DNA of 62,088 nucleotides, the filler included, from Pirum gemmata (taxonomy: Eukaryota), in the NCBI GenBank assembly GCA_002812295.1. It is 13 parts of 13 records of this genome, joined end to end, with 100 filler letters (N's around TTAATTAATTAA, not from the genome) between each part and the next. Parts side by side here need not be neighbours in the genome. Positions count along the whole stretch, not along the records: positions 39,145 to 43,693 come from PDIN01001069.1; 12 more parts are not named here. One strand, 5' to 3'. The notes under the pieces are model-generated. The model did no database searches, was not told the DNA's origin, and worked only from the letters and a program-made list of their open reading frames with translations. The translations under genes and the position numbers were made by a program. Positions 1,952 through 62,063 of the stretch are shown piece by piece (position 1 is the stretch's first letter; each line of letters begins with the position of its first letter).

Positions 1952-2346
1952 GATTTTAAATTGAATCCTATTTTATTCTCTTTTATTAATAACTTAATGG
2001 GTACATTGGATGTTGATTTATTTGCAGCAGAGCATAATTGTCAATTGCCTACTTTTATAACTAAAGAGAAAAATTCTTTTTTATTAGATTGGAATATGTT
2101 TAGAGGCTGGGCTAATCCACCTTTTTATTTATTACATAAAGTTTTATTAAAAATTTATCATTCTGGCGCTACGGTGATAGTCTGCCACCCTTACGACCCT
2201 TCTGCTAGTTGGTGGGGGCTTTGGACCACCTTGTTGTGTTGTGATCCGATTATTCTACCCAGAGCTACTAACACTTTTTTGCATAGGGGGGACAAAATTT
2301 TAGGACCACCCCGGTGGTCGGTCATTTTGGTCTCCAAATTGTCCGG
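1952..2346 (+). CDS. DIRS-type Dam-like N6-adenine DNA methyltransferase domain embedded in pol
   Basis: DFKLNPILF...GTLDVDLFAAEHNCQL (SAM-binding motif, DLFA 2015-2026), WANPPFYLLHKVLLKI (catalytic NPPF 2114-2125), VIVCHPYDPSASWW, ending KLSG. Same motif order as the MT domain of DIRS1 elements. Confidence 0.85.
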
Positions 2347-2699
2347 AAATCAAAGTTCTCATTTTATGCCATCTGAAAATTTTTTTTGGGCTTTAGACGC
2401 CCAGTTGCAACTAGGTGTATCCTTATCGGTGGGCCCGCTTCCTGTTGATGAAAAAGGGGACACATTGTTACCTTATTTTGGGAACAGGGCATCTTATCAA
2501 TTTTGGCCCAAAATGCAGGCGGCTGCTGGGCAGGTTGTGACGTCACATATCAGTCCCGTTTTGGGGGATTTTGGTTTGGCTCTCATTGGAGCAGAGCGGG
2601 GGGCTTCCGGGTCTGCGGAAGTTCAGTCTGCTGAGAAAAATTTTGAGACAGTTTTTCACATTTTACCTGATGGTACCAAATTAAATAAATCAGATCTTA

Positions 2700-3660
2700 T
2701 TATGCACATACATTTATTTACTGGTCATGGAAAATTAAAAAAAATTCGTTTTCAGTTGGGTCTTATGGACTATGTGTCTAGTTTTTCTGACAGTTTCATT
2801 GATAGTGTTGTGTCTCGTTGTAAATCTTGTGATTTATTTAATAAAACTAAGAAGGTTAAATTACCTTTGGCTTCCTATCCTTTGTGTACCAAGCCATTAG
2901 AGCGTGTATCTATGGATTTATGTAAACTTAATGCAACGGTTGGTGGGTATAATTATATTTTAGTCATCATTGATCATTATTCCAGGTTTGTAGCGGCTGA
3001 ACCTTTAGAAAATAAAAATTCTACTACTGTATTTCCTTATATTATTCAATTTATTCACAATTATGGTCAGCCTGTTGAGTTTAATAATGATGGGGGTCAG
3101 GAATTCTTGGCTGATGATACTATTCAACAATTACGTAGTCTAGGTATTATGGTTCATCATCATACTCCTAGACGTCATCAGGCTAATGGTATGGTTGAAC
3201 GTGTAATTGGCACTATTCAACACATTTTACGACGTTTTATGCATGATGATAATAAACAACAGTGCTGGGTTCGTTATTTGCGGAAGGCTGTAGAGGCTTA
3301 TAATGGGTCTTTTCATTCTAGTATTAAAAACATTCCTGATTTATTGTTTTTGGGGCGTTTACGTAATAATCCTTTTGTGGTCAGTTCTTCACCATATCAA
3401 CAACGACAATCAGTAGGGGCACAACATCTGGCTGCGTCTCATCGCAAGCATAATTATGATAAAACTGTTTCTTGTCCTTTTCGGTTTCAGGTTGGGGATA
3501 AGGTTTGGCGTTTGTTAGATAACAATAGGGATGATTTGGCTAGTGTTTGGGAGGATAATGTTTTGACTATTGAGGTGGTGAATGATACCCATGCTCTTTG
3601 TTCTGATGGTGTACATGTAAAGCCTATTAAGGTTCATCTAGACCAGCTGCGACCTGCTAC
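2700..3660 (+). CDS. DDE integrase domain (HHCC + core + SH3/GPY-F-like tail)
   Basis: HIHLFTGH/CKSC zinc finger, PLERVSMDL, YILVIIDHYSRF, NDGGQEF, HQANGMVERV, FQVGDKVW. Confidence 0.9.
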
Positions 3661-4120
3661 AGATGCTTATGTGTTTGATACTCCTTTGTCTTATGGTCAA
3701 ACCCCTACTGTTTTGCATCATTCTAGTTTAGCTGTTCCTATGTTAGGTGTAAATTTTTATTCAAAATGGTTGATGGACATGCCCTGGTATGATTCTGGTT
3801 CACCCTATGTTCTACGTTTAATAGAAATTTTGAGTAAAGGTAAGAAGTTTAAAACTGAGATGTCAACTCATTTTATGTTTTGGTTCAAGTTTCGGCAGTC
3901 TTCTTCTTTTGATTGTTGTTTGGAGGATGGTATGGCTAGTCCTTGGTCTGCGGCTTTGCGCTCTGCTGTTCGCTCGCAGATGTGTTTCGCTAGTGCTCAG
4001 ACTAGAGAATCTGGGGTCCGCCGTGCTTTGAAGTTTGGTTTATGTGCGGATTTTCGTGATAAAACTTTGGATCGTTTGTCTGCTTGAAGTTATATTTTTT
4101 ATCTGCTTGAAGTTATATTT

Positions 4121-4125
<5 letters not shown>

Positions 4126-4162
<37 letters not shown>

Positions 4163-4168
4163 AAATGG
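4126..4168 (+). promoter_or_regulatory. Candidate polypurine tract
   Basis: A35-GAAAATGG lies 39 nt after the pol stop and directly before TG. Confidence 0.5.
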
Positions 4169-4513
4169 TGTTTTGTCCTCGCTTAATAAAGATTTTTCAG
4201 CATAAAAAGGACCTATCACCTGTGTTTTGAGCTACATTTTGTATTTTTTTTTGCTCATTTTCTCTTTCTGGATTTTATTTTCTTGGTTTTCTGGGTTTGT
4301 GTTTTATGGACTCTGTTTGTCTGTGTTTTTTTTTTCTTTGATGCTTTTTAGTCGGATTTTGGGTCTGATTACCTTTTTTTTTGTTTAGGCTTAATTAGCT
4401 TTGCGTTTCTTTTTCTTTTTTTCCTGACTCTTGGGTCTGGTTCTGTTTTGATTTGTTTAGTTAGTTTGGGTCATCTTTCTGTGTTTCAGGCAGATGACCT
4501 TGGGCGTGTCACA
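4169..4513 (+). repeat. Candidate 3' LTR (TGT...ACA, ~345 bp)
   Basis: Starts TGTTTTG immediately after the purine tract and ends GTGTCACA. The 5' LTR is outside the window, so this is unconfirmed. Confidence 0.5.
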
Positions 4514-4643
4514 GCTCGAGTGTTCGAGGTGAGTTTCGAACTCNNNNNNNNNNNNNNNNNNNNNNNNNNNNNNNNNNNNNNNNNNNNTTAATTAATTAAN
4601 NNNNNNNNNNNNNNNNNNNNNNNNNNNNNNNNNNNNNNNNNNN

Positions 4644-5092
4644 CCTAACCCTAACCCTAACCCTAACCCTAACCGAAACCCTAATTATAACCCTAATCCT
4701 AACCCTAACAGTCCCTAACCCTAACCCCAATTCTAATTATAATCCTAACCCTAACAGTCCCTAACCCTAACCCCAACCCTAACCCTAATCCTAATCCTCA
4801 GCTAACCCTAACCCTAACCCTAAGCTAACCCTAACCCTAATCCTGTTCGTGCTTAATTAGTAATAATGTATTTATTAGCTTAATAATTGGGATTAATTTG
4901 GTCTGTGATTTGGTAGTTCTTATTTCACTTTTTTCAACCCCAAATTGATTGATAAGTTTTAAGGTTAAGGCTAGGGTTAGGGTTAGGGTTAGGATTAGGA
5001 TTAGGGTTAATGTTAAGAGTTAGGGTTAGAGTTAAGAGTTAGGGTTTGAGTTAAGAGTTAGGGCTAGAGTTAGGGTTAGGGTGAGGGTTAAG
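4644..5092. repeat. Degenerate (CCCTAA)n - ~120 bp spacer - (TTAGGG)n
   Basis: Direct reading: 4644-4842 CCCTAA-like, 4961-5092 TTAGGG/TTAGAG-like. Confidence 0.9.
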
Positions 5093-6334
5093 GACTAATG
5101 GGACTGTGAATGACTATGACAGACGGGGCTTAGCTAGCAGATTACAGTTATTTTGGTATATTTTAAAATTTATTATCTTTATATTGATTTAAAAATGTCA
5201 ATTTAAATATTATAACCCCCCAAATAAATATTCAGAGTGAGAAAATAAATGAAAAACACGATAAATAATCATAAAATAAAAATCGAAATCAACGTTAGAA
5301 ACTTTACCAGAAAGGAAACTGGATCATTTATTTCAGTGGAAATATGGAGTGAATATTGAAATTATTTAACACAGTCTATTGGTCAATTTTTTACGCCATT
5401 TCTTCCGTCATTAATATGATATATCACAACAATATCGTCTATTTCATTACAGTTGTTCTCTCAATTGTTAATTTGGTACTGTTTTTGAACTGGATATTAA
5501 TAACACCATTGAAAAACACGATAATTTATTACGTATTAATACAGCATTACCATTTCCATATTGATTTCATGGAAGATATTCATCAACATTATCGATAATA
5601 TATATATGTAATATTTATAGTGCTTTTCATTTGTTTTTTCATCATAAAATATACAATAAATAGTACCAAATAAATACAATATACATCCATTTAATTTAAT
5701 TTGGAATATTTTATTATCTATATATTGATTTAAAAATTATAACCCTCCAAATAAATATTCAGAGTGACAAAATAAATGAAATGCACGATATAAACCAAAC
5801 AAAATATTATAATGTTATTAATATTAGGAATAGTTTTAGAACTGTGTTAGAAAAGTAGGGGTGAGATGACTTTATTATTACCGAACAGCTGCCGGAACTC
5901 TTCCGATTTTACTATTAATGCTAATATTATTACTTTAATTGGTATCTACTATAATTATATTTACTATGTTAAGCTATTGAACTTCCATTATTAGTAAAAA
6001 ACACGGTAAACATCTGTTAGATATCTCACCCTTACTGTTAGAAATATCATTATCTATATGTAAGTTAAACTGAAATTTTTAAACCGGGCAACATACCGTG
6101 CATTTCATTTATTTTGGCACTCTGGATATTTATTTGGAGGGTTATAATCTTTAAATTGACATTTTTAAATCAATATATAGATAATAAAATACTACTGAAA
6201 AGCACGATATTAATACTAGATTCTTTATTTCACAATGCCTATTAGAAATACTTTTTAATAAAAAAAAAGATAAGAAACTAATCTAGTTGCTACTACCGGG
6301 TAGATTAGGATTAGTGTATAATATCGCAGTATAA

Positions 6335-14518: not shown

Positions 14519-14840
14519 GATAACTGTGACTTCAACCTTAGCACAAACAGTAGAGTGACTTACTTCAACAGGCAACAGGTCAACTCTCAAGTCTCGACCC
14601 AAATTTAGTTTATCAGATAGATGACACCTCATTTTTTTTTTTTTTTTTTTCGATTCCAAATTCTACCCTTTTTTAATTAAAAAAATAGTAAAATACTTTG
14701 TAAACACTATCGAGCTAGAAATACCAAAATACCTCCCCCCAGCCCCCCCCAATTAGTGCTTTCTAAAACTTTTCTAAAGTGCTTTTTTTACTTTTTTTAT
14801 ATTTCACTTGAAATTTCTTGAAATTTTCTATTTCTGGAAN

Positions 14841-17800
14841 AAATTTTAAACGTGAAATATCATTAATAACAATTAAGTCAGGGTTAATATAAAACTTCTT
14901 ATCTATCTTCCTACTATTAACCCTCTTATATAAATCACATTTACTCTTGGCATTTATATCTGTCGTAAAATCTCTAAACTCTTTTCTATTAATTCTTTTT
15001 CTTACTTCACAATTCCACTTATTCATATTAATATCACAAGAGACTAGGCTGTTAAAATACTGAGTAAGTTTACACTCTTCAATACATTTATCAGTAAACG
15101 ATTTCCATGTTCTTCTGTTAAAACCATATCTGGGATCTAAATCAATTACTTTACCAATAATATTAACATTTTTGTGAACAATAACATTGCCAAACCATTT
15201 GAGCCTTAATTTTATCAATTGATATTCCAACTTTTCTATACCCAACTCATTTCGGACATAAGAACTTGAAGTTGTATCACTACAACCCAATATCCATTTC
15301 AACACACATAATTGTAAACTCTCTAGCTTTTTAAGTTGTACCGCATCACACCACCAAATTTCACAACTATAGGTAATTATAGGCTTAATAATATTATTCC
15401 AGATAATTAACTTTGTCATACTATCAATTCGACTATTTCTAAAAATTAAAAACTTCCAATTATTAATTTTAGTTGACACCTTATCTACTATATGATCAAT
15501 ATGACTATTCCATTTCCAGTAGTGATTAACCCATAATCCCAAATACTTATATTTGTCAACAAAAGGCAAATTATTTTCCGGAAAATTATCAATATACTGC
15601 TGAATTAAATTATTTCTAACCCCATCTTTTTGAACAACTATCATAATCCCACTCTTTTTGAAATTAATTTCAAGTCTCCATTTTTTACAAAATAGAACTA
15701 AACAATTAATGAGTTTATCCAAATCACTATCATTAACAGCCACTAAAGCGATATCATCCGCATACAACAAACAACGAATAACAGAACATAATTCATTCTC
15801 AGATAAGTCTAAATTTAAACTATTAATATCAACAATTAAACTATTAATAAAAATTTTAAATAAAGTAGGAGATAAAACATCACCCTGTCTCACACCAATT
15901 ATAATATCAAACATATCACAGTCTTCACCATCAACTAAAACTGTACTGCGACTATTTTTATACATCTGCCTAATAACACGCCACAATCTGCCTTTAATAC
16001 CGTATTCAAATAGTTTAACCCATAAACCTTCTCTCCACACTCTATCAAACGCTTTTTTCACATCAATAAAAGCTAAGTAAGTAGGAATACCATTAGCTAA
16101 ATTGTTCTCAATAATCTTATTTAAAACAAACAGGTGGTCCACACAGCCTTTNNNNNNNNNNNNNNNNNNNNNNNNNNNNNNNNNNNNNNNNNNNNNNNNN
16201 NNNNNNNNNNNNNNNNNNNNNNNNNNNNNNNNNNNNNNNNNNNNNNNNNNNNNNNNNNNNNNNNNCCACTACTAAATCCCCCTTGTTCATTATTAATAAT
16301 TTTGTTAGTATCCAGGAATTTGGTTAACCGCTTGTCAATTAAACAACTCAATAATTTGTACATAACACTAAGTAAAGTTATACCCCTAAAATTATTACAA
16401 TCAAACTTATCACCATCTTTAAAAATGTTAACTATTCTACCAATTTTTAATTCATCACTAAGATGTTCATTAACCCATAAGCAATTGATAACTTTTGTGA
16501 ACATTATTTCTCCATTTTCAGTATTACACAATTTAAGCAAATCATTTGTCAATTCATCAGCACCACCCGCTTTATGACTTTTTAAATTAAAAATACATTT
16601 ACTTACTTCCTCAACAGTAAAAACAGCATCTAAGATAGGATCAGGATCAACAACTCCACTAAGTATCTCATACCTGCTCAGAGTATTTTCAATATCATTC
16701 TTAAACTCAGAACAAAAACAATCATCATTAATTTCATTACCCAATTTAGCATAATGATCTCTCCAAGTTTTTTTCTTCGTCTCTTTATCATTAACAATTT
16801 CACCACTAGAAATTCTCACACCCAAATTAGCATCATTATTATGACCATTAGTTAACAATTTAATTAAAGTATAAAACTTCTTCGGCTCAAGTCCACTATT
16901 AATTTTACTACAAAATTCTTGATACGAGGTTTGATTGTCTTCAAAACATTGTTGTTTAATCTTGGTATTTAATTTGTTTACTGTTTGCCAGTCCGACTCA
17001 TTGTTTCTGACCAAGGCCCTTTTTTTAAATTTATTCCTTCTACTAGTCAAACTCTTAACTTTAGAAGAATTTTTACGATAGAACCCAGAACATTTAATCT
17101 CAGTTTTTCCAACTACATCATTACAAATCTCTTTAAACTCTGCCAACCAATCATTAAAACAAACATTATTTTCATCACGGTACATATCATCATTAACCAC
17201 TTCAGGCACCGAATTATCAAAATTATGAAACTGTTTCATCCACTCAGAGTATACATCCTTAATGACAAATTTACAACTATTCATTTGACAAAAACGTAAG
17301 TCTAAATCCTTTTGTACTTTATCAATAATTTCAAAACTATCAACCTTAGTATTCCATTTTCGAATAATTTTACAAGGAACCCTTTTGTATTTAAAAGGGA
17401 GTTTAATGGTAGCATAAACTAACTTGTGATTACTTTCAATAACATCATCAATCTCATCTCCAACTAATGAGTTCATAATTAAATAAGGTTTAAACCTATT
17501 TCCGATGATGTAATCAATTATACTACTACCAGTCTGGGAACAGAAGGTATACAAGATTTTCTCTTGGAACCTGTTATTTTTTGTTATACCGTTGTAAATT
17601 TTTAAATTGTTTTGAATTAACCAACTAATAAGTTTATGACCATTTGAATTAATAGTAGATTCACCAAACTCACTAATAACATCACCGGTGTAAGAGTCAC
17701 CAATTCCAACTCTAGCATTAAAATCACCCAAGATCCAAACCTCACCCAACAACTCCAAAGTTTGTTTCATTTTACTAATCTCAGAAAGTATACTATCTCG

Positions 17801-19222
17801 GACCATAGTACTACTATTTGCAACATCCATGTACACAGAGCATAGATATACATTTTTACAGCCATTACCATTAGTAATCTTAATCCACATTATGCGATCA
17901 TTAAATTTATCACTTAAGTTTGGAACAATATTGATTAGGTTAAAAATGCTTTTTCTAATCAAAAAGCCAACACCACCCCGACCACGTTTGGCTCCAGGCA
18001 CAAGATCAGCACAATTACCAATCCATTTATACCTGTTTATCTTAACTTTCTCATCACCTTTTAACCAATGTTCTGAAATGGCAACTATATCTAATTTCTT
18101 TCTAAAGAGTATGTCATCTAAGAAGGTCCACTTGCTATTAATACCACTAACATTCCACGTACCAATATTTAACCTGCTTCTTTCGTATTCAATCCATTTT
18201 CCATCCGAAACAGAATTAGTATAAGTAAAATTAGAATTAGAGAATAAATGTGTTACATCATTCCATTCCAATAACCATTCCAAGTACACATTAGGACCTA
18301 ATATCTTATCATTTAATTTCATACCGCATGAACGCAATAAATAAAATTTGTTATTACTGAGAGGATCCACCACCAGATCCATCTCTTTCTGAAGTTTTTC
18401 TCTATGATATTGTCTGGTCTTAAAAGACTGACCTAGGTCTGCTTTCCACCCAAGTAGTTTTTGCCTTCGTTTTATAATTTTAAAAATATGATCCCTGTCT
18501 TTACTCTTAAATACTATAATATATACATATCTATTATCATCATACCCCTTCCACTGGACTTTTTCGATTAAATTCATATCAATATGCATATTTTCCAACC
18601 ATATACAAAGTTGACATTCTACTATATATCTACCTACACCCCAAAGTACTATAGCACGACTCTCTCTCTCATCCTTCTTAGACTTAAAAACAGGAATCCA
18701 ATCACCTTTGTCATCACCTTCGGAGTCGTCATCACTAATAATATACTCATCACCATTATCTTTACCATTTTTAATCTCATCATTTATCATTAAATCCTCA
18801 TTTATCAACAACAAATTATTAATTAAGTTTCTCCATAAATCCACATCAATCAATCTACAAAACGGACTAATATCATTAGCCATACATGGACAATTATATG
18901 TGGCACTCCTTCTAATCTCACCAACATTATTTATCTCTTCTAACACCTTCTTCCAATTAACCGTACTATTCGTATCAGATCTAGACATCACTTTACAACA
19001 TCTATTGTATACTTCTCTCACCACCTTTTCTCTCTTCATCATATCAACTTCTTTCTTAACATCACAGGACATACAAATCAAAAAGGATACTCTTTTAATT
19101 GATTTTAACAAATTATTATTATTACTACCGATACCAGAGTACCCTACGTGCACCAAAATTGATGACAGATTATTAAATAATCGTCACACTTTCTTTCTTT
19201 TTTCTTTAGAACAACTATTCAT
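14841..19222 (-). mobile_element. Non-LTR retrotransposon (LINE), APE endonuclease + RT, 3' end lost at N 14840
   Basis: APE motifs: TWNVSG, AISEHWL, ILGDFNA, SIIDYII, SNH. RT motifs: KAGGAD, NFRGITLL, EQGGF, AFIDVKKAFDRVWR, GVRQGDVLSPTLF, LLYADD, YKYLG. The two ORFs are split only by the N-gap 16152-16265. Confidence 0.95.
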
Positions 19223-34796: not shown

Positions 34797-37700
34797 TAAT
34801 AAATTATTATTAAAAACTGAATCAAATTGATGTATTGTATTGATTATGTTACTAATAACAGTCTAATAACGTTAAAACTAAGGTAACATAATGTGTTATA
34901 GCCACTATAAGCTGAATAAATTTTTTAATTTTAATTAATAAGTAAAAAAAAAGTGTAAATAATGACTTTTTTTTCTTCACATCATTATTTCACATGATTT
35001 TTTTCTTCACATCATTATTGCACATGATTTTTTTCTTCACATGAAAATAATAAAAAAATAGGTCTAATAATAGGTCTAATCTATATCAGTTCACCTCCTT
35101 GTCCAAAACACTTTTGGTCGTAATTTTAAAGTTCATTTTAATAATTATTTACTGCCTAAAACACAGTTTAATTAAGTCACAATTTCGAGCAATGACCTCT
35201 ATCAAAGAATAAGTGACTTCCTTTATGAACGTTCCCCTACTACTAGTAGCTACTAGGGAGACTATATATAAAATATCATGATAGTCACCACTAGCTAGCT
35301 CTAGAGCTAGCTAGCTAGACCTATGTAGTCTAATAATTATTCATATAGACTAATATGATATTTAAAATATAATTTAAAATTCTACTCCCAGTCCCAATTC
35401 TGATTCCTAATTTTGTTAAAAAAATCGAGTTTTCGAGCTTTATTTATAAACCCGAAAAAATGGAAAAAATAATTTTCGAACAGGGTAATTTCGGCTTTTT
35501 TTTTTTTTTTGATATGATAGCAGAAATGCGAGTTTTCGGGCTCGAGCAGAAATTGCAGCTGAATAGGGAGAGGCTTACGTGATGATGCATAATTGACCAA
35601 TGATGTTTATGGATGTATGATGTATGATATTCAAATAATACGCCACGTCAAGGGGTGGGTAGGTAGGTGGTATTTGACCGGAAATTAACGTCGAGGGGTA
35701 GGTAGTTAGTGATACTATTTGAAGCTGTATTTGACTGGAAATTGGCGTTACGTAATTTTGTGCTATCAATACGAACGAGTCTTTTTATACGACTAGCTAC
35801 TAGCTAGCTAGAGATCAATACTAGCTAGCTAGGCTACTAGCTACTAGTAGCTTTGTGACTATTTTGTGCAACGTTCGCTTTTCTTATTGTATGGTGCAGC
35901 ACGCCTAACATTTACCAACTTTTGAAAAGTGGCCAAATTTTTTCTGACAGCTCGAAAATTTCAAACACATTAAATTTATATATTCGAAATAGAATATTAT
36001 TATTACTATATCCAAAAAGTTGGGGTTTCTTAGACACAATGCACCATATCATATTATTTTTAATTAAAAAAAATATCCAGGCAGGGAGTATTAAAAATTA
36101 CCCAGGCAGGGGCCGCAGGGAGTATTAAAAATTACCAGGGAGTATTATTAGTCTAAAGTGCTTTTCAGTTGTTTTGTCATCATAAGTAAGATATACAATA
36201 AATAGTACCAAATAAATAAAATATAAATCCATTTGATATATTTTGGTATATTTTATTATCTATGTATTGATTTAAAAACGTCAATTTAAAGATTATAGCC
36301 CTCCAAATAAATATTTAGGGTGACAAAAGCACGATAAAAATTACAAAATTTAAAGGGGGGGTAGGCTGTGTAGCCAGCTGTGTGTAGCTATGATACTATC
36401 GATACTACTAGCTACTAGCTAGTAGCTATCATACTTAAAATAAGTATGATAATCATATCTGATAGCTAGCTGCATATATAACCATATTGATATATACCGA
36501 AGTCCTTGTTATATCATACGAATATCACTAGAATATAAATTATATAATCACTGCCACTTCACTCACTACCTGTATTCTGAACTATTCTGAAGATTCTGAA
36601 TCACTATTTTTTTAAAAAAAAACTATATTATTAAAAAAATCGTAAACAATTTTGGTTTATAATAAATAGTAGCTAAATTTAGTATATGTAAAATGATTTT
36701 CCAATGTACATTGTACACTGGAAAAGCTATTGGAAACTATTGGAAAGGTGATTAGCCAACCATTTTTTTGCACCATTTTCCTAGCTAGAGTAGCTAGCTA
36801 GCTAGCTATCGATAGCTAGCTGCTAGCTAGGAGGTAGCTACTACTAGCGACTCTACCAATAGCTAGCTAGTAGCTATCGATACCTAGCTAGCTAGCTAGT
36901 AGCTTAGGCTAGCTACCTAGGGCTAGCTAGTCTACGATACAGTCGATGGTTTACAGAGCCTTCAGAGTCTGGACTATCGTTATAATATTATCATATCTAT
37001 TATTGATACTGTGCTTTTCATTTATTTTAGTCACTCCGAATATTTATTTAGTTGTTTATAATACTTAAATTGATACTTTTAATTAAATAAATAAATATAT
37101 AATAAAATATACCAAATGAAATGGATTTATACTACTTATTTTATTTTTTATGACGATAAAATAACTGAAAACCACGATAGTCTAACTTATACCAAAGTAT
37201 CAGATAGACTAGTCTATGAAGCAATATTATTTTAAAAAATCAACAAAATTTTTAATTACAACTATAATTATCGTGGTTTTCATTTATTTTGTCACTCTGA
37301 ATTTTTATTTGTAGGGTTACATCTATAATATTTAAATAGACATTTTTGAATAAATAAATAAATAATAAAAGACACCACATTAAATTAAATGATTCATATT
37401 GTATTAATTTGGTACTATTTATTGTATATTTTATGATGACAAAATAACTGAAAAGAAGCACTAAAGAAACCATAGGAAACCATATTATACAATATAATGA
37501 TAACTGTATCATAAGTTTGTAGTGATTGTAGTAACCTAGCTACTTACTGCTCCTCCTTTTTATAATAAGGACCTTTTAGACCTATTTAAAATTCTCCTTG
37601 TAGACTAGACTATGCATGATAGAGAGAAAAAAAAAAGTAGTAGGTCTAGTCTATATTATTAATATATTGATATTATCAATTTATCATAGACTAGTCACTA

Positions 37701-39574
37701 GTCCCTTTCAAAAATTTTCGTCAGTTCAGTAACTTTGAATAATTGTTATCATACTATATAAGTAGGGTCTATCAATAAGGGTGAGATATCTACTAGAACT
37801 TTTTTCGAACAGATGCTTATCGAGCCAACCTTAGTTCCATGTTCCTTACTAATAATAGACAGTTAAATAGCTTAAAATAGTAAATCTAATTATAGTAGAT
37901 ACCAATTAAAGTAACAATGTTAACATTAATAGTAATGAAAACCATAAAATCGGAAAAGTTCCAGCAGCTGTTCGGTAATAATAAAGTGACGTCATCTCAC
38001 CCCTCGTGTTTTTCAATAGTATTGTCCAGTTCAAAAACTGAAATAAACGTACCAAATTATTATTATGGTTAAACTATCAGACATGTTTTAATTAAGTATT
38101 TTATACTTAATGTTGTATTTTATGAAACAAGTTCAATTATACACTTAAACAGTACTGTAATGAAATAGACGAATAAGTAGCTCTAAAGTTTATTAATAAT
38201 AAGTGAGTAGCTATTTTGCTCACAACAACAACAACAACAAAAAAGAACAATCAGAACAATACAATTGCTAATCATAAACTATAATATTATGGTATTACTA
38301 CGAAAAGTACAACAAGTTAAACCTGAACGACAATCACATTATTAACTTATACCAAAGAATTATAAATGAAACAAATCAGCAAATTACAATTTTAGTTAAC
38401 CATAATATTATAACCTAAAGCATTTGGGAGGTAAATTGGGACTTCTTCTATGATTATATTATGATACTGGTAGTAGACCCTACTCCGATCAGGTACTCCG
38501 GTAGTAGACTACAGATATCATATACACTTATTATTATTGTGCTTTTCATTTATTTTGTCACTCTGAATATTTATTTGGTTGTTTATGATATTTAAATTGA
38601 TACTTTTAAATAAGTAAATATATAATAAAATATTACAAATTAAATGAAATGGATTTATATTGCATTTTAAAAAATTTGGTATTATTTTTTGCTTATTTTT
38701 TGTATAGTCTAATTTTTTTTATAATGACAAAAGAACTGAAAAGCACGATATATAACTGATATATAGAGTATTATAGAGATAATATAGTCTATAGATAGAC
38801 CAACTCATAGCTAGCTTGGCACTGGTTAGATCGCAAATGTTTGGGCATTTTTTTCCATATAAAGAAAGAAAATAGTTAAATTTAGTATAGCTTTACTATA
38901 GCTTTAAACCAACTAAAACTCTCCATCTTTTATTATTATTATTCTATTTTTTAGCAGTTTTTTAGCTAGGTTTACTACTCTTCTATTATTCGACAATAAA
39001 TAATAATAGACTAATCTAATTTTTTTTTTTTTTTTTTTTTGTTTNNNNNNNNNNNNNNNNNNNNNNNNNNNNNNNNNNNNNNNNNNNNTTAATTAATTAA
39101 NNNNNNNNNNNNNNNNNNNNNNNNNNNNNNNNNNNNNNNNNNNNGTTATTGTTATTGTTATTGTTATTGTTATTTTTATTGTTATTGTTGTTATTGTTAT
39201 TGTTATTGTTATTGTTATTGTTATTGTTAATATTGTTATTGTTACTGATATTGTTATTGTTATTGTTATTGTTATTGTTATTGTTATTATTGTTCTTGTT
39301 ATTTGTTATTGTTATTGTTATTACTATTGTTATTGTTATTGTTATTGTTATTGTTATTGTTATTGTTATTGTTATTGTTATTGTTTTTGTTATTCTTGTG
39401 ATTGCAATTGGTTTTGTGATTATTCTTGCAATTGCTCTAGAAATTGTTCTTGTCATAATTACTCCTGCAAGTAATTGATGATGTTGTTGCAAAAGTACCT
39501 CCGATACATAGCTGATTCTATGGACAATAGTATTTGATAAACTCTCCTAGCTAGCTAGAGGCCTAAAACGTGTG

Positions 39575-39729
39575 CTGCACTTGGATTAAAACTTGCATTT
39601 CCTATCAAAACTTGTTTTTTCAACAACATCCATCATTTAAAATTAAGAAATTTTTTTACAACTTTTTGCAACAGAAGGACGTACATCGTCACAACTGCTG
39701 GCCCAAAGTGGCAAACTCAAGCCACCCGA
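39575..39729 (-). ncRNA. Candidate Fanzor omega-RNA scaffold / element right end
   Basis: Directly after the stop codon: hairpin GGGTGGC/GCCACTT (39727-39706), nested stems CAGCAG/CTGTTG and GACG/CGTC (39700-39669), CAAGTTTT repeats (39614-39607, 39595-39588), ending GTGCAG at 39575. Function is inferred. Confidence 0.5.
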
Positions 39730-40827
39730 CTAAGTAATTCTAGCCGGTTCTGGAAATACAATTTCATTACGTGTCAAATAACTTGATAAAAATATTTGTC
39801 GCCGCGTGAATATCACTATCGCTGCTAATAAACTTTTCTTGGTATTGATTTTGTTTGCATATAAACACTTTGCTTGAATAACTCCGCAATACCCACATGT
39901 TTTGGAAGTGTAGGATTCATCGCTTCGATCACATTACAATCGTTAAACAATTCGCTTTTGGCTATCAAGCGTTGTCTAAATTTGTAATGTGACTAACAAC
40001 ATTTTCCGTACAATTTTTGTATTAATTTTTCTTCCTTTTCGAATGCCCATGGCTTTGTATTAAATTTTGGTATTGAAATTACTTTATATGACAACCACGT
40101 ACTTAATTTTTTGTGAATTTCACTTATTTTGTTTTTAATTTTACTTCTATGATAAGTATTTCAATTACTTTTCTGACATTTCTTCTTTTACGTCGTGCTT
40201 TTTTTCCTTTTAGATTTTCAATTCTTTTCCATTAACTCGACTAATCATTTTATCCAAATATAAACAGAAAGAAAAAATTCGTTCCATGTGACCATCACCC
40301 CGGCCCATTCTGAGCAAAATCCATTGGTACCATATGTTGTCATAAATGTTCTTACTCCAGGATCCATTGACACCACGTCTTTAGGTCTCATATCGTGATT
40401 GTCTGGAGGAACACAAAAAATAATTTTATCATTGCGTCGTTCTTTAATTACACGAATCGACCCAATTGGCGTTAGTTTTTTGACTTCATTGTAAAATAAC
40501 AGAAATTCGCCTCGTCAACTTTCGTATTCTGTACTGTTATATTTTGTGTCACATTCTTATTTACCTTCCTTAAACGAAAAACTATACTGACTATTTTCAG
40601 CATTGAAATCTCGATGACGAACTTCAAATAATTGTTGCAAGTCTTTTTTACTACGAAATTTAAATTGACATTTCTTTCTTAGCACGAGCACGTACCGTGA
40701 GCCACGAATGGGAAGCTAAATTGGACCTCGTGCATGACCACTCCTGGGTAACATTTTTCCAGTATGGAACACAATCCAGACCCCTGTAATTCGATTCCTG
40801 AGTAGTCCGGTTACGTTTTTTAAACAT
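39730..40827 (-). pseudogene. Fanzor2 / IS607-TnpB-like RNA-guided endonuclease pseudogene
   Basis: Manual minus-strand translation across frameshifts: MFKK..VPYWKNVTQEWS..SHSWLT / QFKFRSKKDLQQ / DVVSMDPGVRTFMTTYG (RuvC-I, DPG 40364-40356) / ERIFSFCLYLDKMIS / KIKNKISEIHKKLSTWLSYKVISIPKFNT / RKINTKIVRKML / SHYKFRQRLIAK / DESYTSKTCGYCG (39921-39883) / KVFIC..DSDIHAATNIFIK (RuvC-III, 39820-39791) / YLTR..PARIT* (TAG 39732-39730). Confidence 0.9.
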
Positions 40828-42169
40828 AATTTAATATTTTAGTTTTTAAATTCATTGTTTGTTTGTTTTTGTTTTTTGTTTTTTGTTTTTTGTTTTTTGT
40901 TTTTTTGTTATTGCTTTTGTTTTTTTTTATGCTTGTTGTCTTACTGTGCTTGTGTTTGTGCTTGTGCTTGTGCTTGTGCTTGTGCTTGTGCTGTTTGTGC
41001 TGTTTGTGCTGTTTGTGCTTGTAGCTATGCTTATGCTTATGCTTATACTTATGTTTTATTGACAGTACAGCACTGCCACTGAAGTCACTGAACAAGGCTA
41101 GTTAGGAGCTAGCTAGCTAAGAACGTAGACTAGCTAGTAGTATCATGGTAGTATGATAGCCACTATCATATCTACTGGTATATATAGGACTTCAAAAAAA
41201 AAAAAAAAAAAAAGAGGTCCTAGTAGCTGGGGTCCAGGCAAAAGACTCGAGTCTCTAGCTAGGCTAGCTAGTAGCTAGGTCACATGGAAAAACACGAGTC
41301 ACGCGACACTACTGGCTACTAGCTAGTAGCTAGCTAGCTAGCGTATCGATAGGTCTAGCTAGCTAGTACACTTTCTACTAGCTAGACTTTAACCCTCTAT
41401 CATACTAGCTAGACTTTAAATTTTAACCCTCTATCATACTAGCTAGACTTTAACCCTCTATCATACTAGCTAGCTAGCTAGCTAGTAGCTGTTATGATAC
41501 ACTGTTATCGATAGCCTGAGTGTTAGTTAGGTCTTCGGTGCTTGGATGCTTGGAAAAGGCAAATAATTATAGTCCACTGTGATATCATACTCATATCATA
41601 GTAGCTCTGGCTAGAGCTACTAGCTAGCTAGCCTAATTTGGCTGGGGTTAATAGGTCTACTGGGTTAATCCACTATGATACTACTATCTATCACCCTAAC
41701 CCTGTTGTTACCCTAACCCCTAAGGGCCCTAACCCCTAACCCCTAACCTCACTATAGGCTAGCTAGCTAGCTAGCTACTGTAGCTATCCGATAGCTATCA
41801 ATAGTCTATCAATGTATCACAGTATCAGATCAATGTGTCATATCATAATATTGAGAGTCTGAGACCACATATTATCATAATATTATATCATAGATTCATA
41901 ATATCATATATGTGATATAACTATCATAATATATAGACTACGTATCGATACTATGATATTATTAATAAACTAGGGAACTATCGTATTGAAGTATCGTATA
42001 GTACAGTTTTACTCCAAAAAGAACCAAAGAAGTAAAAGAAGGTATAATTATCAGGTATGAAAAGTATTTTATTAATTTTAAAAAATATATCATCAATACA
42101 AGGTTCGGAAAATAAATATAGAACGTTACAATATGCTGTTCCTTCTTAAGGCGGCTTTCTTTATTCAAT

Positions 42170-43564
42170 ATGATGAAATCTAAAATTTTATTAAGAAACA
42201 AATGTATGAGTACAGATAGTTTGTTTTGTGATCTTGTTACAAGTAGAAGAAAATGTACAGCGATTTTGGGTATTTTTTCTCACTATAATAGTAAGAGGCT
42301 TGGTTGTAAAAGTGCTGGCCTAACCCACCACGCTACAAAGCGCTACATACAGTATTTGTCTCAAAGATGCGAAAATATAAATGTACCGAAAGTCCACCCT
42401 TATTTTGTTAATTTTCCGAGTGTAGGACTGGAGATGGCATTGGAAGATTTCGTTCATCGCTTTAAGTATAATAGAAGATATGAAGATAAACTGGCTAATT
42501 TATTACTTGGCAGCTGCTCAATTCTTTGGGTATATACTTTTAACTTGTCATTTTAACTTATTCTGCATTTAAGTGCTTTTCTATTTTTTTTTTTTATTAT
42601 CAATGGCCATATCTACCTTTATTCCATTATCATATACATATACTAACCATGTCACTTATTAGCCTAAGCATAGTAACAATCGTTTGGACATGATATCAAT
42701 AAACAATCATACAATAATGTGCACAATCCCAACCATGAGTAAAATCTTCATCTTTTATATAAGAACAAGCATATAAACATAAACAAAATCAATACAATCA
42801 GAAAAATAAACACAAGTTTAAGAGTGTTTATGTATATATATATTATATTATCTTATAAGCATAATCGTAAGAATAAAAAAATAAACAAAAAAAAAATATT
42901 AAACAAACAAACAAACAAACAAACAAACACAAAAAGTATTTTTTTTAGCAATTGACTATATAATCGTAAACTTTGGTTATCATTGCTTCTCCAATATATT
43001 TGGTTAATGTTTATTCTTTATTCTCTAGGATGTACCCAATTACCAAAAATCTAAACTGGCTTTAGATTTTTTTTTGAAATTGCATGCTTTAGGCGCCCCT
43101 ATTGAACAAGAACTCGTGATTACCCTCTTTAAAACTTATTTTGAAATAATGGGTCCTACTAAAACGTCTGAGGTATTTAATATATTATAATTTTGTTGCT
43201 ACCTATTGTGATAGTTACAAATAAACAATGTTCTGATTGAAAGTTTGTATTGATCATTGTTTGTTTTCATAAATTTCAAAACTGCCCTTTTGTAAGTTTC
43301 ACTAGTTAAACTAACTTTTACAATTATTTTATTCTTTCAGTTGATTGTGAGCTTATACAAAGAATATGGCTATTTTGATATTCTGGCACTTAAAAGTTTA
43401 ATTGTAACAACCATGAAATTTAGAGAAGAAACTTTTTTGAAAAATCGTGTCGAAAATCCTCTTGTTCATGTTTTTGTCGAACTTAACCCTATCTTACCGA
43501 AAGATAATCAAAACCTGGCGTGCTTTTATTTTCAAAATATAGAAACTGTTAATGAAGTACATGG
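42170..43564 (+). CDS. Partial spliced gene (exons 42170-42529, 43029-43172, 43341-43564), helical-repeat, possibly PPR-like mitochondrial protein
   Basis: Canonical GT-AG junctions keep one frame: ...SCSILW|DVPNYQKSKLALDFFLKLHALGAPIEQELVITLFKTY..TSE|LIVSLYKEYG... Basic presequence-like N-terminus. PPR resemblance is weak. Confidence 0.7.
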
Positions 43565-43892
43565 GTAAGAATTACAATAATTACTTAAATAAGCAATCTT
43601 TCAATTAAAAGTAAATACTGAAAAATGTCATGCGCACAGTAGGTGTGATTATTATATGTAAATATTAATACTTTTATATATTTTATTCGTTTANNNNNNN
43701 NNNNNNNNNNNNNNNNNNNNNNNNNNNNNNNNNNNNNTTAATTAATTAANNNNNNNNNNNNNNNNNNNNNNNNNNNNNNNNNNNNNNNNNNNNTAATAAT
43801 AATAATAATAATAATAAACCAAGACAACTACAATGAAAATAATAAAAGAAAAGAACATTTGTAAAAAAAACCATGGCAATAATAACAAAAAC

Positions 43893-44321
43893 CTTTTCTA
43901 TCTCTTTGGTTTCCTTCACTTCGCTTTCGAGTGACGTATCACTAAAATCACTATCATATTTCTGCAACTCTCTTATCTTATTTTGAATGTTAACATTTCG
44001 TAATTCTTTTTCTTTTTCTCTACTACTCACTTCTTCTTTTTTCTCTAAAGCTTCTGAAACCTGTTTAAGGTTAAACAAATCATGAACTTCATTGTTCTCT
44101 TGTTCAAAACTAAAGCTGGTATCGTAGCTTACGGGGAAGTTATTTTTGCTTTTAAAATCGAAATCATTATTACTATTATCATTTGTAGATATGGTACTAC
44201 TCCCAACGCTGTTCAAATCAAAATCTTCGAATGGATCAAAAGTAACGTCCGTATTCAGGGCCTCTTCTAAGGTGATAGAATCAAGAGCATCGTCTTCGTC
44301 GTCATCAATACCCCCAGGCAT
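43893..44321 (-). CDS. First exon of acidic/coiled-coil protein, unknown function
   Basis: AAAAATG start, 143 codons with protein-like composition, ends at AAG|GTTTTT donor before an (ATT)n intron. Confidence 0.65.
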
Positions 44322-45701: not shown

Positions 45702-47258
45702 TTACTTACATTCACCACAGAATTGTCGATTCATTTGTAAAAAAGCGTCTGCACTTTCTCGCAGAGTTCGTATCAACACAAATCTAAAGTAGTTGTCGCC
45801 AACATTTGCTTGATAATATGAATCTTCTACAATTTCTTTAACCATTTGCTCTCCGTCGATTACTTTATCAAAAAGAGCTTCCAACGCAATTTTCACAGCT
45901 ACTTTATATTGGGGTGTCGCGTCCGTGAAAATAACTAATGGGGTATTTTTGTTTACCTTTTTAGATTCTTTTTCCATTTTACATTTAGCAAACGCCAACA
46001 CTTTCTCTATAGACGTATCGCATTGATTGGTGGCATCACCACGTCTTAGATGAAGAGCTACGAAAGGAAATTTGGCTTGGCTTAATTTCCCGTTTTTCAT
46101 GCTTAAATCTATATTACTAACACTCTTATCAGCTTGGATTTCTTCCTTAAATAACTCACTCAAGAACTTTTTTTTTAAATCTTGATAAAAACGAGGGTTA
46201 TAATCATGCCGATACGAATACCCTTTCTTGTGATAATAGTAATTCGCGAAATTAGCACATTGGGTCTTATGCTTTTTCTCGTAAGACATGACATGGCCTT
46301 CAATATATGCACGATAGGTATAATAACGAACTTTAAAACCCACCTCTTGTCCGATACTCCACACGAAATTTTTCCCCAGTCTCATCAACTTCATAGCCTT
46401 GATTAAATCTTCTTTCGTTTTACCTTTATCTTCTGTGACCAAAACATAAGGACGGATTTTTTCAACTTCATCAAAACTATTCAAACCACGCGCAGAAAGT
46501 GTAGTTACAATATTATGTCCATCGTTGTATTTTCCAAAGTCAAAATAGGTATCCCAGTCATTATCTTTTGGAACCGGTTTTCCGTTGTTATGGCTTACCG
46601 CTAAAAATTTTGAAGGCGGTAATATAACTAATTGAGCACATAACGATAACGCTAAAAGTGCTGAATGTGAAATCACACTTAACCTATCGTTATAACCAGC
46701 AGTAACTCTTTCTTTTAGTACTAATATATTTTTAATTTCTTTGCAATCTAACAAATCTTTTTTCTCTTGTCCACAAAATTCTTTCAGCTCATGTTCTACG
46801 TCTACTTTCCCAAGTAATGCAAGAGTTTTCTCCTTGTTACCTTGGGGATTAATAATTTCGGCATTGTTATTATTAACTATGTTAACACTATCCGTATTTT
46901 TGGTGTCAGCGTCAACCTGATTTTGTACCTCCACAAAATCTTTTTTAATGTTAATTTTATTTTTAGAAGATAAAAGCTGAAAAGAAGTTCTTATTTTTTC
47001 CAACAAGTGAGTTTGATCACTATCATTACTATGTGTATGGCTAAGCTCTTTAATACTATTTGTTATATTATTATTATTCTCTGCTGTATTATCCTTTGTA
47101 ACTTTATCATTGTCACTTGTATCAAAATGTACATTAAATGTTGTATTTACTTCACCCGAGTCATAAACTTTGGAAGGTAATACTATGAGTAAAAATAACA
47201 AAATAAAAAATATAGTGTATACTTTTTTATTTATAATTATGTTATAAAAGCTACCCAT
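45702..47258 (-). CDS. Type II membrane glycosyltransferase, GDP-fucose-dependent fucosyltransferase-like (GT11/GT23/GT65/NodZ motif class)
   Basis: 518 aa intact. N-terminal TM (IFFILLFLLIVL), N/D-rich stem, AGYNDRL motif, FVALHLRRGD and VIFTD motifs. Confidence 0.75.
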   Translation of the reverse strand: MGSFYNIIINKKVYTIFFILLFLLIVLPSKVYDSGEVNTTFNVHFDTSDNDKVTKDNTAENNNNITNSIKELSHTHSNDSDQTHLLEKIRTSFQLLSSKNKINIKKDFVEVQNQVDADTKNTDSVNIVNNNNAEIINPQGNKEKTLALLGKVDVEHELKEFCGQEKKDLLDCKEIKNILVLKERVTAGYNDRLSVISHSALLALSLCAQLVILPPSKFLAVSHNNGKPVPKDNDWDTYFDFGKYNDGHNIVTTLSARGLNSFDEVEKIRPYVLVTEDKGKTKEDLIKAMKLMRLGKNFVWSIGQEVGFKVRYYTYRAYIEGHVMSYEKKHKTQCANFANYYYHKKGYSYRHDYNPRFYQDLKKKFLSELFKEEIQADKSVSNIDLSMKNGKLSQAKFPFVALHLRRGDATNQCDTSIEKVLAFAKCKMEKESKKVNKNTPLVIFTDATPQYKVAVKIALEALFDKVIDGEQMVKEIVEDSYYQANVGDNYFRFVLIRTLRESADAFLQMNRQFCGECK

Positions 47259-57922: not shown

Positions 57923-60741
57923 CTAAAAATCATCAGTACTACAATAGTTTCCATTCATATCATCATTGGTCGCCGAATACTCATTAGTATTTTCAGACAA
58001 CATGTGTTCCGTGCCTACTTTGCCTTCTTCGCCGTATTCCATAGCGAAAAACGGTACATCTGGACACATTTCGTCTTCCATTTTACCACCAGCAGCCATA
58101 AAGTCGGCATCAGATTGCAACTCAATCCCAGGGGCATCTTCGCCCAATAACTCTTTGATATTTTTCTTTTCTTTCATCTTTTCTTTACGTTTTCTGCAGT
58201 ATACTGCTAAACCGATACCAATGGCTATTAATACTACCGCACCAACCACCAAACCAATAATAATGGGTGTCCAGTTTCTTGGAGTGGGAGAACAATAACC
58301 ATCTTTAACGTCATACCCATCTTTACATACAGAGCAAGCAACCATACGAGTATTATCACCAATACAAGCATCACTCACATTAAGACAATTAACAGGTGTA
58401 GAAAGAGTTAAATTAGATAAACAGGATATACAAGAAGTGAAGTTCATTTTCGTATCAGTAACCAAGGTATGGTTTTTAACTGCATCACATGCAACACAAA
58501 CAGCTTGGTCGTTGGCGTCAAAGTAAATGTTAGCTTCTTTCGCGTTAAAATCACAAGTTATACACTCGGAATCTATTTTGGCCATAATATTACGATGGTT
58601 TTCCTTTTTAATTAATTTCTTACTATTTCCATCAGTGATAGAACAATCAAAATCAAAGACAGCTTTAGTTTTTGTAAAATTACCATTAGCTGCATGCAAA
58701 GCTTCGCGATTTTTACAACAATGCATATCATTCCCATTCAATTTGACAATACTATTAGGATTAGTGTATAACTGAGAGAACAAATCCATAGACATTTCAG
58801 CAATGTTGTTGTTACTAAGGTCTAGTACATTAAGGGTAGTTAAGGGTTTCAAGATTTCTTTACTAACACTATTTAAGTTATTATTTGCAAGGCGTACTTC
58901 CTCAAGGTTAGCATTATTAACAAAAACATTTTTGGGCAAAGTTGCAATGTGGTTGTCGTCTAAATTTAAAGTTTTTAAAGCAGTAAATTTGGCAAATGAA
59001 AAAGGTTTGTCATTTAGAAGTGCGCCTTTTAAATTTAACGCTTCGATGGTTGGAGGAATAAAATTATTAGCAGGATCCACAGGACTAACTTGTAAAGGGT
59101 TCCCATGTACATCAAAAACTTTTACAGTTAATGGAATAGAACCTGCAGTAATTTCTTTAATTTTGTTGTTATTCAGAAGATAGGTTATAAGGTTAGTGGT
59201 ACTTTTAACAATTTTCGATACATCTTCAATTGCATTGTTTCCTAAATCTAAATATACAAGTTTCGTAAAAAGCTCCAAGTTGGCATTTGCCGAAAATAAG
59301 TTGTTGTTTGACAATTTTAAAGTTGTTAAGGTTCCTTTGAAATCCTCCAATTTTTTAACATCAGTCACACTGTTGTTACTTAGATCTAATAATTCAAGGA
59401 CGGTATGGTTAGGGTTAGCTGCAGGACCTACAATTTGATTGTTGCGAGCGATAAGTGATTTGATTTGGTTATTTGAGATAGTATTTTTTGGCAAAGATGT
59501 TAAGGCATTGTTTGATAAATCCCTATTTTTAAAAAAATAAAAAAGATAAACAAGTTAGAGATTTTATTAGAAATCTTACATATTAAACAAATAATAATAA
59601 CAAAAAATAATAATAATTAATAATAAATAATAATAAATAATAATAAATAATAAAAAATAAAAATAAATAGTAATAAATAATAATTAATAATAAATAATAA
59701 TAAATAATAATAAATAATAATAAATAATAATAAATAATAATAAAATAATAATAAATAATAATAAATAATAATAAATAATAATAAATAATAATAAATAACA
59801 ATATAATAATAATATAATAATAATAACACTAATAATAATAATAATAACTAATAATAAACAATAACAATAATAAAAATAAATATTTAACATTTTACATAAT
59901 ACTTACAATTCAATATCTTTCATACTTAGATCAGCAGTAAACAAATCATCTACAACAGTTAAAATACCAAAATTACTTAAATCAATAACATTTGGACAAG
60001 CAGTCAATTTCGAGGCGGTACCGTCAAAAGTTAATTTTTTTGCAGCATCTAGCTTAAAAGAAAATCGACTGCAATGAATTTTTTCGTCGAAATTATAAGT
60101 AAGCCCATCAAATTGTTCTTTAGAAAATTCTGTTCTAATAACTTTACTATTTAAAATAGTTACTGTGTCCAAATTTTGTTTGACTTTTGCATCTTGAAAA
60201 AAAGTTTTAGAAATAGTCGTAAAAGGGTTGTTTGATAAATCTAAATCTGTTAAATTACCAATTTTCCAAATTCCTTTAATGTTATTCAAATCCGCAATAT
60301 CGTTATTGGCTAAATTTCTAAACACATTTTAAATAATACAAGTTATAATGAAATGTCAATAAGAATGATTATCGCAATAATAATAATAATAAATAATAAT
60401 AGAGAGTAATAGATTAAAAGCATTAACAACAATAACAATAACAATGCCAATAATTAAAACAACAATAATGATAATAATAATAATAATAAATAGTAACAAC
60501 AGAGACTTAAATAATAATAATAATAATAATAATGATAATAATAATAAAAATAATAATAATAATAGCAGTAACAAAAACAATAGCAAAAATACCAAAAAAA
60601 AAAAAAACAATAACTACTACTCTATTACTACTAATACTACTACTACTACTACCACTACTATATAATATAAATACAACTACTACTTCTACTTATTACTACT
60701 ACTACTACTACCTACAATTTCAAATTAATGTATAATATAAA

Positions 60742-60782
<41 letters not shown>

Positions 60783-62063
60783 TTTCAAATAATATATAAT
60801 GTAAACAAAAATATAATAATACTTACAATTTCACACCATTATCGTTTGTGATATTAGCTTGAGCGAAAAATTGAGGATCCAAAGCACGTATACCACAGGA
60901 TTCCGTTCCACACTTACTTAAATCAATAGATTTACAGTGTTGTAACGAATAGGTTCCCCCACTTGCACTTATCAAAAGTCTCAAAGTTTTATCATCATTC
61001 CCAAAATCAAAACCATTTATACCACACTTGAAAGAAGGGTCAAGTAAAGGCATTTGTACATTACTAGGATCATTTTTGTAATTAAGAATTAAAGGTTTGA
61101 AAATTCCATATTGTAAATGTTTGAAATCCAAAAAATAAAGTTCGGCCTCTTTTAATTTCATATTTACAAACATGTCTTTGGGAAAAGTTGTAAAATTGTT
61201 AAAAGACATTCTAAGACTAGTTAATTTCGTGAAATTGGATAGATCCGGACTTAGGAGTAAATTGTTTACATTAAGATTTATACTTTCAAGAGTATTTTTA
61301 TGTCTGTTACAATGAAAATTTAAATATAATTAGTATTATTATTATTATTTATTATTATTTATTATTATTTATTATTAGTTTTTATTAGTTATTATTATTT
61401 ATTATTAGCTATTATTAATTGTTATTATTCATTATTTATCATTATTTATCATTATTTATCATTATTTATTATTATTTATTATTATTATTTATTATTATTT
61501 ATTATTTATTATTATTTATTATTATTATCAATAATAATAATAATAAATCATTATTGTCATTATTAAATAATTATCTTAACTATTGCTTGATATTCACTAA
61601 TAGTTAGAAACCAAAAACTAACATACATACACACATAAAACAAACAAACAAACAAACATATACATAAACAAATAAATAATTAACAAAACTTACACAGCAA
61701 GTGCTCCAGGTTCAATAACTGTAATTTTGTTATTAGCTAAGTTAATTTTTTTCACCCCTTGAATACCATTAAATGCAGTGGCAGAGATTTTCTTTATATC
61801 ACCATTACCTTGCGGCCTACTGATCCAATCCTGAATTGGACTCTTCGTCTCTGTGCAAAACCAATAATTAGGAAAATCCGAAAATTTTCCTGTGGCGATT
61901 TGAAATGTTCTACGAAAATCGTACCAATCTTTTAATTTCAAATCCATAATATTATCATTACAAATCGGTCTGTTAGCACTGGCTGCGGGGTTTTTTCCCC
62001 CTAACTGAATTTCTTCACATACCTTGTCTGTAACAGAAGGAAGCAATCCTTTTAACTCACCAG
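57923..62063 (-). CDS. Leucine-rich-repeat, Cys-rich, single-pass receptor-like protein (5'-partial; exons 62063-61694, 61303-60827, 60317-59907, 59522-57923)
   Basis: Many LxxLxLxxN repeats; three phase-2 GTAAGT...AG introns restore one frame. LRR cap (LNGNDMHCC), CxxC-rich stalk, TM (IIIGLVVGAVVLIAIGIGLAVYC), basic stop-transfer and ~90-aa acidic tail. Confidence 0.92.

Follow-up and report, generated by a model that had tools for sequence, protein, structure and literature searches.

The window (the whole stretch of DNA analysed here, 62,088 nucleotides from Pirum gemmata) holds one copy of a broken gene on its minus strand, which is very probably a pseudogene of an IS607-family Fanzor2-type nuclease; most of the TnpA of its element was likely gone by the time decay in a eukaryotic genome began. 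Judged by its sequence, the relic is a dead Fanzor2, and such relics are known: decayed IS607-like copies in eukaryotes, interrupted by stops and frameshifts, were already published in 2013 (PMC3673617). We infer that today's locus can make no working nuclease. We also consider it likely that the Fanzor2-specific N-terminal domain (NTD), which in ApmFz2 holds the omega-RNA and makes the RuvC fold complete, arose as an overprint in the +1 frame of TnpA and stayed open after the death of the transposase. The relic and the clade of its intact relative P0180 would then be transposase-less eukaryotic fossil carriers of that domain.

The first-pass annotation had read eight peptide motifs in order along the minus strand, in a region hidden from the ORF track. 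We located all eight, in that order, between positions 40767 and 39791 and spread over three frames, and no ORF of at least 100 amino acids lies over the relic. The motif search placed them as follows:

40767, minus strand: PYW
40743, minus strand: EWS
40664, minus strand: FKFRSKKD
40364, minus strand: DPGVRTFMTTY
40073, minus strand: IPKF
39992, minus strand: SHYKFRQRL
39921, minus strand: DESYTSKTCGYCG
39820, minus strand: DSDIHAATNI

Frameshift-aware searches with Fanzor2-type queries gave strong collinear matches to P0180, P0002, P0031, and P0032. When the window was aligned in this way to P0180 (intact, 606 amino acids), 216 of 355 positions were identical (61%), so that the relic is collinear with intact Fanzor2-like proteins, where the annotation had named a lack of collinearity as grounds for dropping its reading. 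The corresponding counts were 137 of 201 (68%) for P0002 and 126 of 185 for P0031. With P0032 as the query, the minus strand scored 508, compared with 34 to 50 for 12 shuffles and 36 for the plus strand. Against P0180 we counted nine frameshifts (near 40673, 40305, 40228, 40148, 40056, 39998, 39921, 39877, and 39780), close to the approximately eight proposed earlier, and three in-frame stops (40559, 40517, and 39995) where several had been reported. Six deletions removed P0180 residues 80-279, 48-62, 38-42, 331-335, 376-378, and 557-561. The largest of these is the N-terminal internal deletion noted in the annotation; its 200 codons take away the thumb, the first WED strand, and the REC region, as well as the HTH_OrfB_IS605 domain that Pfam places at residues 163-189 of P0180. 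The parts of the relic are as follows:

40676..40827, minus strand: N-terminal domain remnant, with an ATG at 40827, a basic stretch, the PYW..EWS and SW motifs, and deletions of 5 and 15 codons
40673..40676, minus strand: junction of the ~200-codon deletion (thumb/linker, HTH_OrfB_IS605 region, REC), with a frameshift
40305..40673, minus strand: remainder of WED and RuvC-I, with the DPG Asp codon at 40362-40364 and the stops at 40559 and 40517
39916..40304, minus strand: bridge helix/RuvC-II region, with six frameshifts and one stop
39754..39915, minus strand: zinc finger and RuvC-III, with two frameshifts

The N-terminal remnant corresponds to P0180 residues 9-79 and matched the N-terminal profile (domain E value, 0.007); its basic stretch is a possible NLS. 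The ATG lies ~20 codons ahead of PYW, as in P0180 and the Naegleria protein P0112, with simple repeats upstream.

The Fanzor2/IS607-type identity and rearranged active site recognized in the annotation were supported by Pfam domains, by matches to the structure 9B0L, and by the alignment to P0180. The relic keeps the Asp of the RuvC-I DPG motif, has Pro at the canonical RuvC-II Glu site (40068-40070), and carries the shifted Glu at 39916-39918, six residues ahead of the zinc finger. This DPG and shifted-Glu signature is that of Fanzor and pro-Fanzor (bioRxiv 10.1101/2023.08.09.552727; PMC10530073). The RuvC-III Asp is kept (39812-39814), and the conserved Arg preceding it (RD) is Ser. In the zinc finger, the first CxxC is intact (39886-39897), the third Cys is kept, and the fourth has become Tyr; this fourth Cys and the RD Arg are both present in P0180 and P0002. 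Read as a single frame with X at stops, the relic matched 19 of 270 candidate proteins at an E value of ≤0.001, all with TnpB/Cas12f-type Pfam domains, and its homologues bear PF12323, PF01385, and PF07282. The single-frame peptide itself gave a weak Pfam match (E value, 0.12) and no match among PDB chains.

By sequence, the nearest solved structure was 9B0L, a mimivirus Fanzor2 (E values, 2e-20 for P0006 and 9e-48 for profile A1). It was also the best Foldseek match (E value, 1e-18) of an AlphaFold model of P0180 (pLDDT, 84.8), with weaker matches to ISDra2 TnpB (7e-10) and SpuFz1 (5e-5). VIA comparison of the model with 9B0L gave a Z score of 20.6 and an rmsd of 3.6 with 429 aligned, placing model residues 26-600 on chain residues 53-518, a range that gives the first and last residues only. 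P0180 residue 26 falls on 9B0L residue 53, where the Fanzor2-specific NTD begins according to the ApmFz2 structure paper (PMC11832414); TnpB/Cas12f rows start at ~146. The N-terminal-domain sequence profile did not match 9B0L at an E value of ≤10, and the equivalence of the NTD in P0180 and 9B0L is therefore drawn from the fold. Intact P0180 has a TnpB-like HTH/WED/REC architecture plus the Fanzor2 NTD, of which the relic keeps the NTD start, with the thumb, HTH, and REC deleted.

The window consists of 13 pieces of 4.3 to 5.6 kb, cut by 12 identical 100-base linkers (N44-TTAATTAATTAA-N44). The pieces are most likely size-sorted unplaced contigs, with adjacency across linkers meaningless. Because the contigs are joined by linkers, the true context of the relic is its own contig only, and neighbors beyond it were ruled out as context:

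39145..43693, no strand: relic contig, bounded by linkers, the only trustworthy context
43030..43565, plus strand: two likely exons of a host gene with a GT-AG intron, read from the sequence, with no Pfam match

In addition to these exons, the contig contains simple repeats and telomere-like TTAGGG-type repeats. The likely spliced gene on the same contig is evidence that the relic lies in eukaryotic host DNA, and other pieces of the window contain LINE and LTR-type elements; TTAGGG-type repeats, the GT-AG intron, and these elements together mark a gene encoded in a eukaryote or its virus. The ratio of observed to expected CpG was 1.30 in the relic versus 0.73 in the window, which fits a foreign origin of the relic.

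Other features of the window were also observed. Most pieces carry interstitial TTAGGG arrays and TAGCTAGC-type repeats, which in the relic contig lie at ~41250-41800. A retroelement polyprotein at 794-4087 (plus strand) carries RT, RNase H, a Dam-type N6-adenine methyltransferase (PF05869; E value, 1e-7; NPPF), and then an rve integrase. A Dam-like domain is a typical feature of DIRS elements, whose recombinases are of the tyrosine type, and an integrase-type retroelement with such a domain may merit attention. A LINE-type endonuclease and reverse transcriptase lie at 14763-19156 (minus strand) with an assembly gap between them. An intact 518-amino-acid, membrane-anchored, fucosyltransferase-like ORF lies at 45702-47258 (minus strand; O-FucT E value, 2.5e-5), and its Atlas clusters are all eukaryotic. 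At 57923-59494 (minus strand) is a receptor-like ORF with LRR, Cys-rich, and transmembrane parts, for whose C-terminal half no homologue was found; LRR-like ORFs follow at 59903-62046.

The annotation had suggested that intact copies may exist elsewhere, and intact relatives are indeed present on metagenome contigs (the P0180 cluster and P0295). P0180 was found in a repeat search with P0002, best of the 19 matched proteins; it comes from an ENA metagenome contig and belongs to a cluster of four at 93 to 97% identity, on contigs of 1.1 to 2.5 kb. P0002 is an NCBI record. A metagenome scan with P0032 recovered only L080, and phage records gave distant matches only (36 records, each at <60% identity).

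For a careful tree, 48 rows were chosen from a quick tree of 109 rows (109 of 184 after thinning of similar loci); it has no outgroup, and its bootstrap is still not fully settled. In this tree the relic fell in a 100/100 clade of six rows with P0002, P0031, P0180, P0291, and P0295. This clade nests in a larger one of 19 rows (99/99), among them L080 and a Durusdinium-annotated protein. The GVMAG rows, the cyanobacterial pro-Fanzors, and the large contigs from isolates, taken from their size to be giant viruses, all fell outside the 19-row clade. Naegleria Fanzor2 and the capsid-bearing giant-virus locus L001 belong to a wider group whose branching the careful tree did not resolve; the same holds for the placement of L080, which the quick tree makes sister to the relic (SH-aLRT, 90). 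By the fold scores of P0180 given above, the family groups with Fanzor2/pro-Fanzor rather than with Fanzor1 or IS605 TnpB; the tree had no Fanzor1 rows. Two other related proteins carry fusions within one ORF, according to precomputed Pfam accessions: P0221 (a cluster of 12) joins Fanzor2 to what is presumably an XPG-type nuclease, and P0268 (Naegleria) joins it to what is presumably a helicase.

Among known systems, ApmFz2 (L79 of Acanthamoeba polyphaga mimivirus; PDB 9B0L; PMC11832414) shares DPG, the shifted Glu, and the zinc finger with the relic lineage. Both it and P0180, whose model it matches best by fold, have an NTD that is absent from TnpB structures. However, ApmFz2 is only 18 to 20% identical to P0180 and is intact and viral, whereas the relic is broken, lies in host DNA, and is without the thumb and REC. 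The Naegleria lovaniensis P0112 cluster (11 members), which we take to be the NlovFz2 family, is eukaryotic like the relic and is multicopy with truncated members; P0112 has a short N terminus ahead of its PFW motif (N-terminal profile match, E value 4e-5), but it is 37% identical to the relic over 215 amino acids and lies outside the 19-row clade. NlovFz2 has been characterized (PMC10432273). The IS607-type ORFB sequences of Gilbert and Cordaux (2013; PMC3673617) resemble the relic in their stops and frameshifts within a eukaryotic genome, and terminal inverted repeats and a target-site duplication were found in neither. Like the Fanzor2 of Bao and Jurka (2013; PMC3627910), they differ in belonging to another subclade and probably another host. 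Both papers predate omega-RNA, and a dual-coded NTD is not described in their available portions. Cyanobacterial IS607 pro-Fanzor TnpB (bioRxiv 2023.08.09.552727) carries the DPG and shifted-Glu signature, and in 71 of 80 GTDB loci it overlaps TnpA in +1, as in the relic; unlike the relic, the cyanobacterial proteins sit in prokaryotic hosts and in separate clades, at no more than ~40% identity to it.

Beneath the N-terminal motifs of the relic we found a trace of the transposase:

40724..40801, minus strand: decayed remnant of an IS607 TnpA serine recombinase, read in the -1 frame of the bases that encode the N-terminal motifs

This trace of 26 codons was 46% identical to residues 137-162 of the intact TnpA of L001 (E value, 7e-4) and matched the TnpA of L080 (E value, 4e-5); its profile match was weak (E value, 0.6), and it had no Pfam match. 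As the same bases are used by both frames, the trace is not independent of the Fanzor-frame match. No catalytic or HTH part of TnpA was detected upstream of it, and the intact TnpA serine recombinase with N-terminal HTH that would characterize an autonomous IS607 element is absent at the relic. On these comparisons of sequence, the PYW/SW block is what an IS607 TnpA remnant encodes in its +1 frame.

The same arrangement was found across related loci. In L080, an IS607 TnpA (Resolvase E value, 1e-15) lies wholly beneath the first ~240 codons of the Fanzor frame; this tnpA (293-1024) has one in-frame stop, and the overlapping Fanzor frame (303-2198) is open for 631 codons. A nearby TnpA match was present in 47 of 80 loci, 43 of them on the same strand and all of these with an identical frame offset; in 40 of the 43, TnpA shared >60 bases with the open Fanzor frame. 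In the viral loci L037, L057, L071, and L072, tnpA and the Fanzor gene diverge from each other on opposite strands. The PFW, CTxTD, and SWF motifs result when the TnpA segment containing the DRLxR motif is read in +1, and a profile of the TnpA frame under the NTD matched solved IS607-type serine recombinases. Among 160 related loci, which were picked by similarity to a protein bearing the NTD and many of which are kin, the profiles for the two frames, TnpA and NTD, coincided (28 and 23 of these loci went into building the pair, with the 80 GTDB loci outside the training) at one place in 125, all in +1; 7 loci matched the NTD profile alone, and 28 had no match. Stops interrupted the TnpA frame in 24 of the 125 overlapping loci and the Fanzor frame in none. 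In the available portions of the earlier papers, IS607 is described as two overlapping ORFs with nothing further on the overlap (PMC3673617), and the word "overlap" is absent (PMC11832414, PMC3627910, and PMC10711439). We found no statement of a dual-coded Fanzor2 NTD in the literature searched.

At the other end of the gene, the 3' tail contains two further candidate features:

39655..39760, minus strand: predicted omega-RNA scaffold, two hairpins in a closed junction and a terminal stem
39661..39673, minus strand: candidate right-end motif, a 13-mer matching the 3' end of L080 exactly

The structured tail and the 13-mer are likely the omega-RNA and right end of the element. The G+C content of the predicted scaffold is 47% versus 30% for the window. 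These 106 bases 3' of the coding end, with boundaries set after inspection, had a fold z score of -3.1, and 3 of 200 shuffles were as stable; a 241-nucleotide span at the 3' end was not significant (z, -0.96). L080 ends in the same 13-mer, about as far from RuvC-III as in the relic, and the other 159 of the 160 loci lack it; in both the relic and L080 the 13-mer includes the 3' arm of the terminal stem. When six 3' ends were aligned, common structure was limited to these two. Rfam gave two chance-level matches over 37000-44000, neither relevant. As a search pattern, the hairpin plus 13-mer was rejected, having matched 57 viral stretches of which none was near a TnpB gene. An inverted near-copy of the right-end motif lies ~165 bases beyond it (39485-39496, plus strand), with a shared 10-mer found at these two sites only in the window; as the sequence is TTG-rich, the near-copy may have arisen by chance, or it may be a repeat bound by TnpA. 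Among the 25 longest of 216 inverted-repeat pairs, none enclosed the gene in the way expected of a Fanzor2* captured by a TIR transposon, and from this single decayed copy the element ends, target-site duplication, and TAM are not definable.

By analogy with ApmFz2 and NlovFz2, the ancestral protein of ~600 amino acids would have bound an omega-RNA transcribed from the right end of the element, with flanking DNA supplying the guide (PMC10432273). It would have cut double-stranded DNA adjoining a short TAM and thereby helped the element persist, and the element would have moved by TnpA supplied in trans. A Fanzor2 element, probably already short of most of its TnpA, would then have inserted in the eukaryote genome and decayed there, although TnpA may instead have been lost through decay at the relic site.

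The annotation had raised a giant-virus origin, which our results did not show. That the relic arrived within an endogenous giant-virus fragment bearing an IS607 element, and decayed along with that fragment, is compatible with the pseudogene reading, but we regard it as rather unlikely. Giant viruses are enriched in Fanzor2 (PMC10530073), and one Atlas cluster of look-alikes is Nucleocytoviricota. L001 is a giant-virus contig on which an intact TnpA/Fanzor2 pair (1909-5425) directly follows an NCLDV major capsid gene, with Erv1 also beside it; the quick tree joins it with the relic in a group of 47 rows (SH-aLRT, 90). However, the relic grouped with the P0180 set and not with giant-virus rows when NCLDV and eukaryotic Fanzor2 were placed in one phylogeny, and its clades (6 and 19 rows) contain no sampled giant-virus row. 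Viral scans with P0002, P0180, and A2 found no locus and no close DNA relative, the sampled viral loci being the best 80 of 465 confirmed viral matches. The 4.5-kb contig holds no recognized NCLDV hallmark or other viral gene, and has simple repeats and a likely spliced gene instead.

An improbable alternative is that, although the protein gene is dead, transcription of the right end continues and yields a "ghost" omega-RNA, which is loaded into an intact Fanzor2 from another locus of the same genome. Ghost omega-RNA loci are functional for SpuFz1 and are reported in Naegleria (PMC10432273), and the tail of the relic retains hairpins and a high G+C content; several of its stem pairs are G-U, however, which fits decay. 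P0002 has an open C-terminal half but is too divergent for a recent sister copy. We give very little credence to an intact gene that only looks broken because of errors in sequencing or assembly, or to the contig being a bacterial contaminant with a pro-Fanzor TnpB, even though the assembly is fragmented and the active-site signature is common to cyanobacterial pro-Fanzors. The breaks seem to reflect decay and not read error, because long homopolymers are not in excess at the frameshift sites (longest run, 2 to 4; background mean, 3.5) and open frames of 500 to 1100 codons are present on other contigs of the window; the clean multicodon deletions and the substitutions at conserved sites also argue against error. 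Against contamination stand the eukaryote-type repeats and intron of the relic contig, the separate clades of the cyanobacterial rows, and the absence of any A2 match in GTDB genomes.

Read as a decayed Fanzor2, the relic adds one further eukaryote to the past hosts of this family. It leads to a tight subclade with intact members of ~600 amino acids (P0180, P0291, P0292, and P0295). These share no more than ~40% identity with the named Fanzor2 proteins found here and are apparently uncharacterized, and assays on them need no resurrected protein; the 3' tail of the relic offers a first candidate guide scaffold for them. If true, dual coding would explain where the sole Fanzor2-specific domain came from, and it would be a warning against trimming the NTD in engineering.
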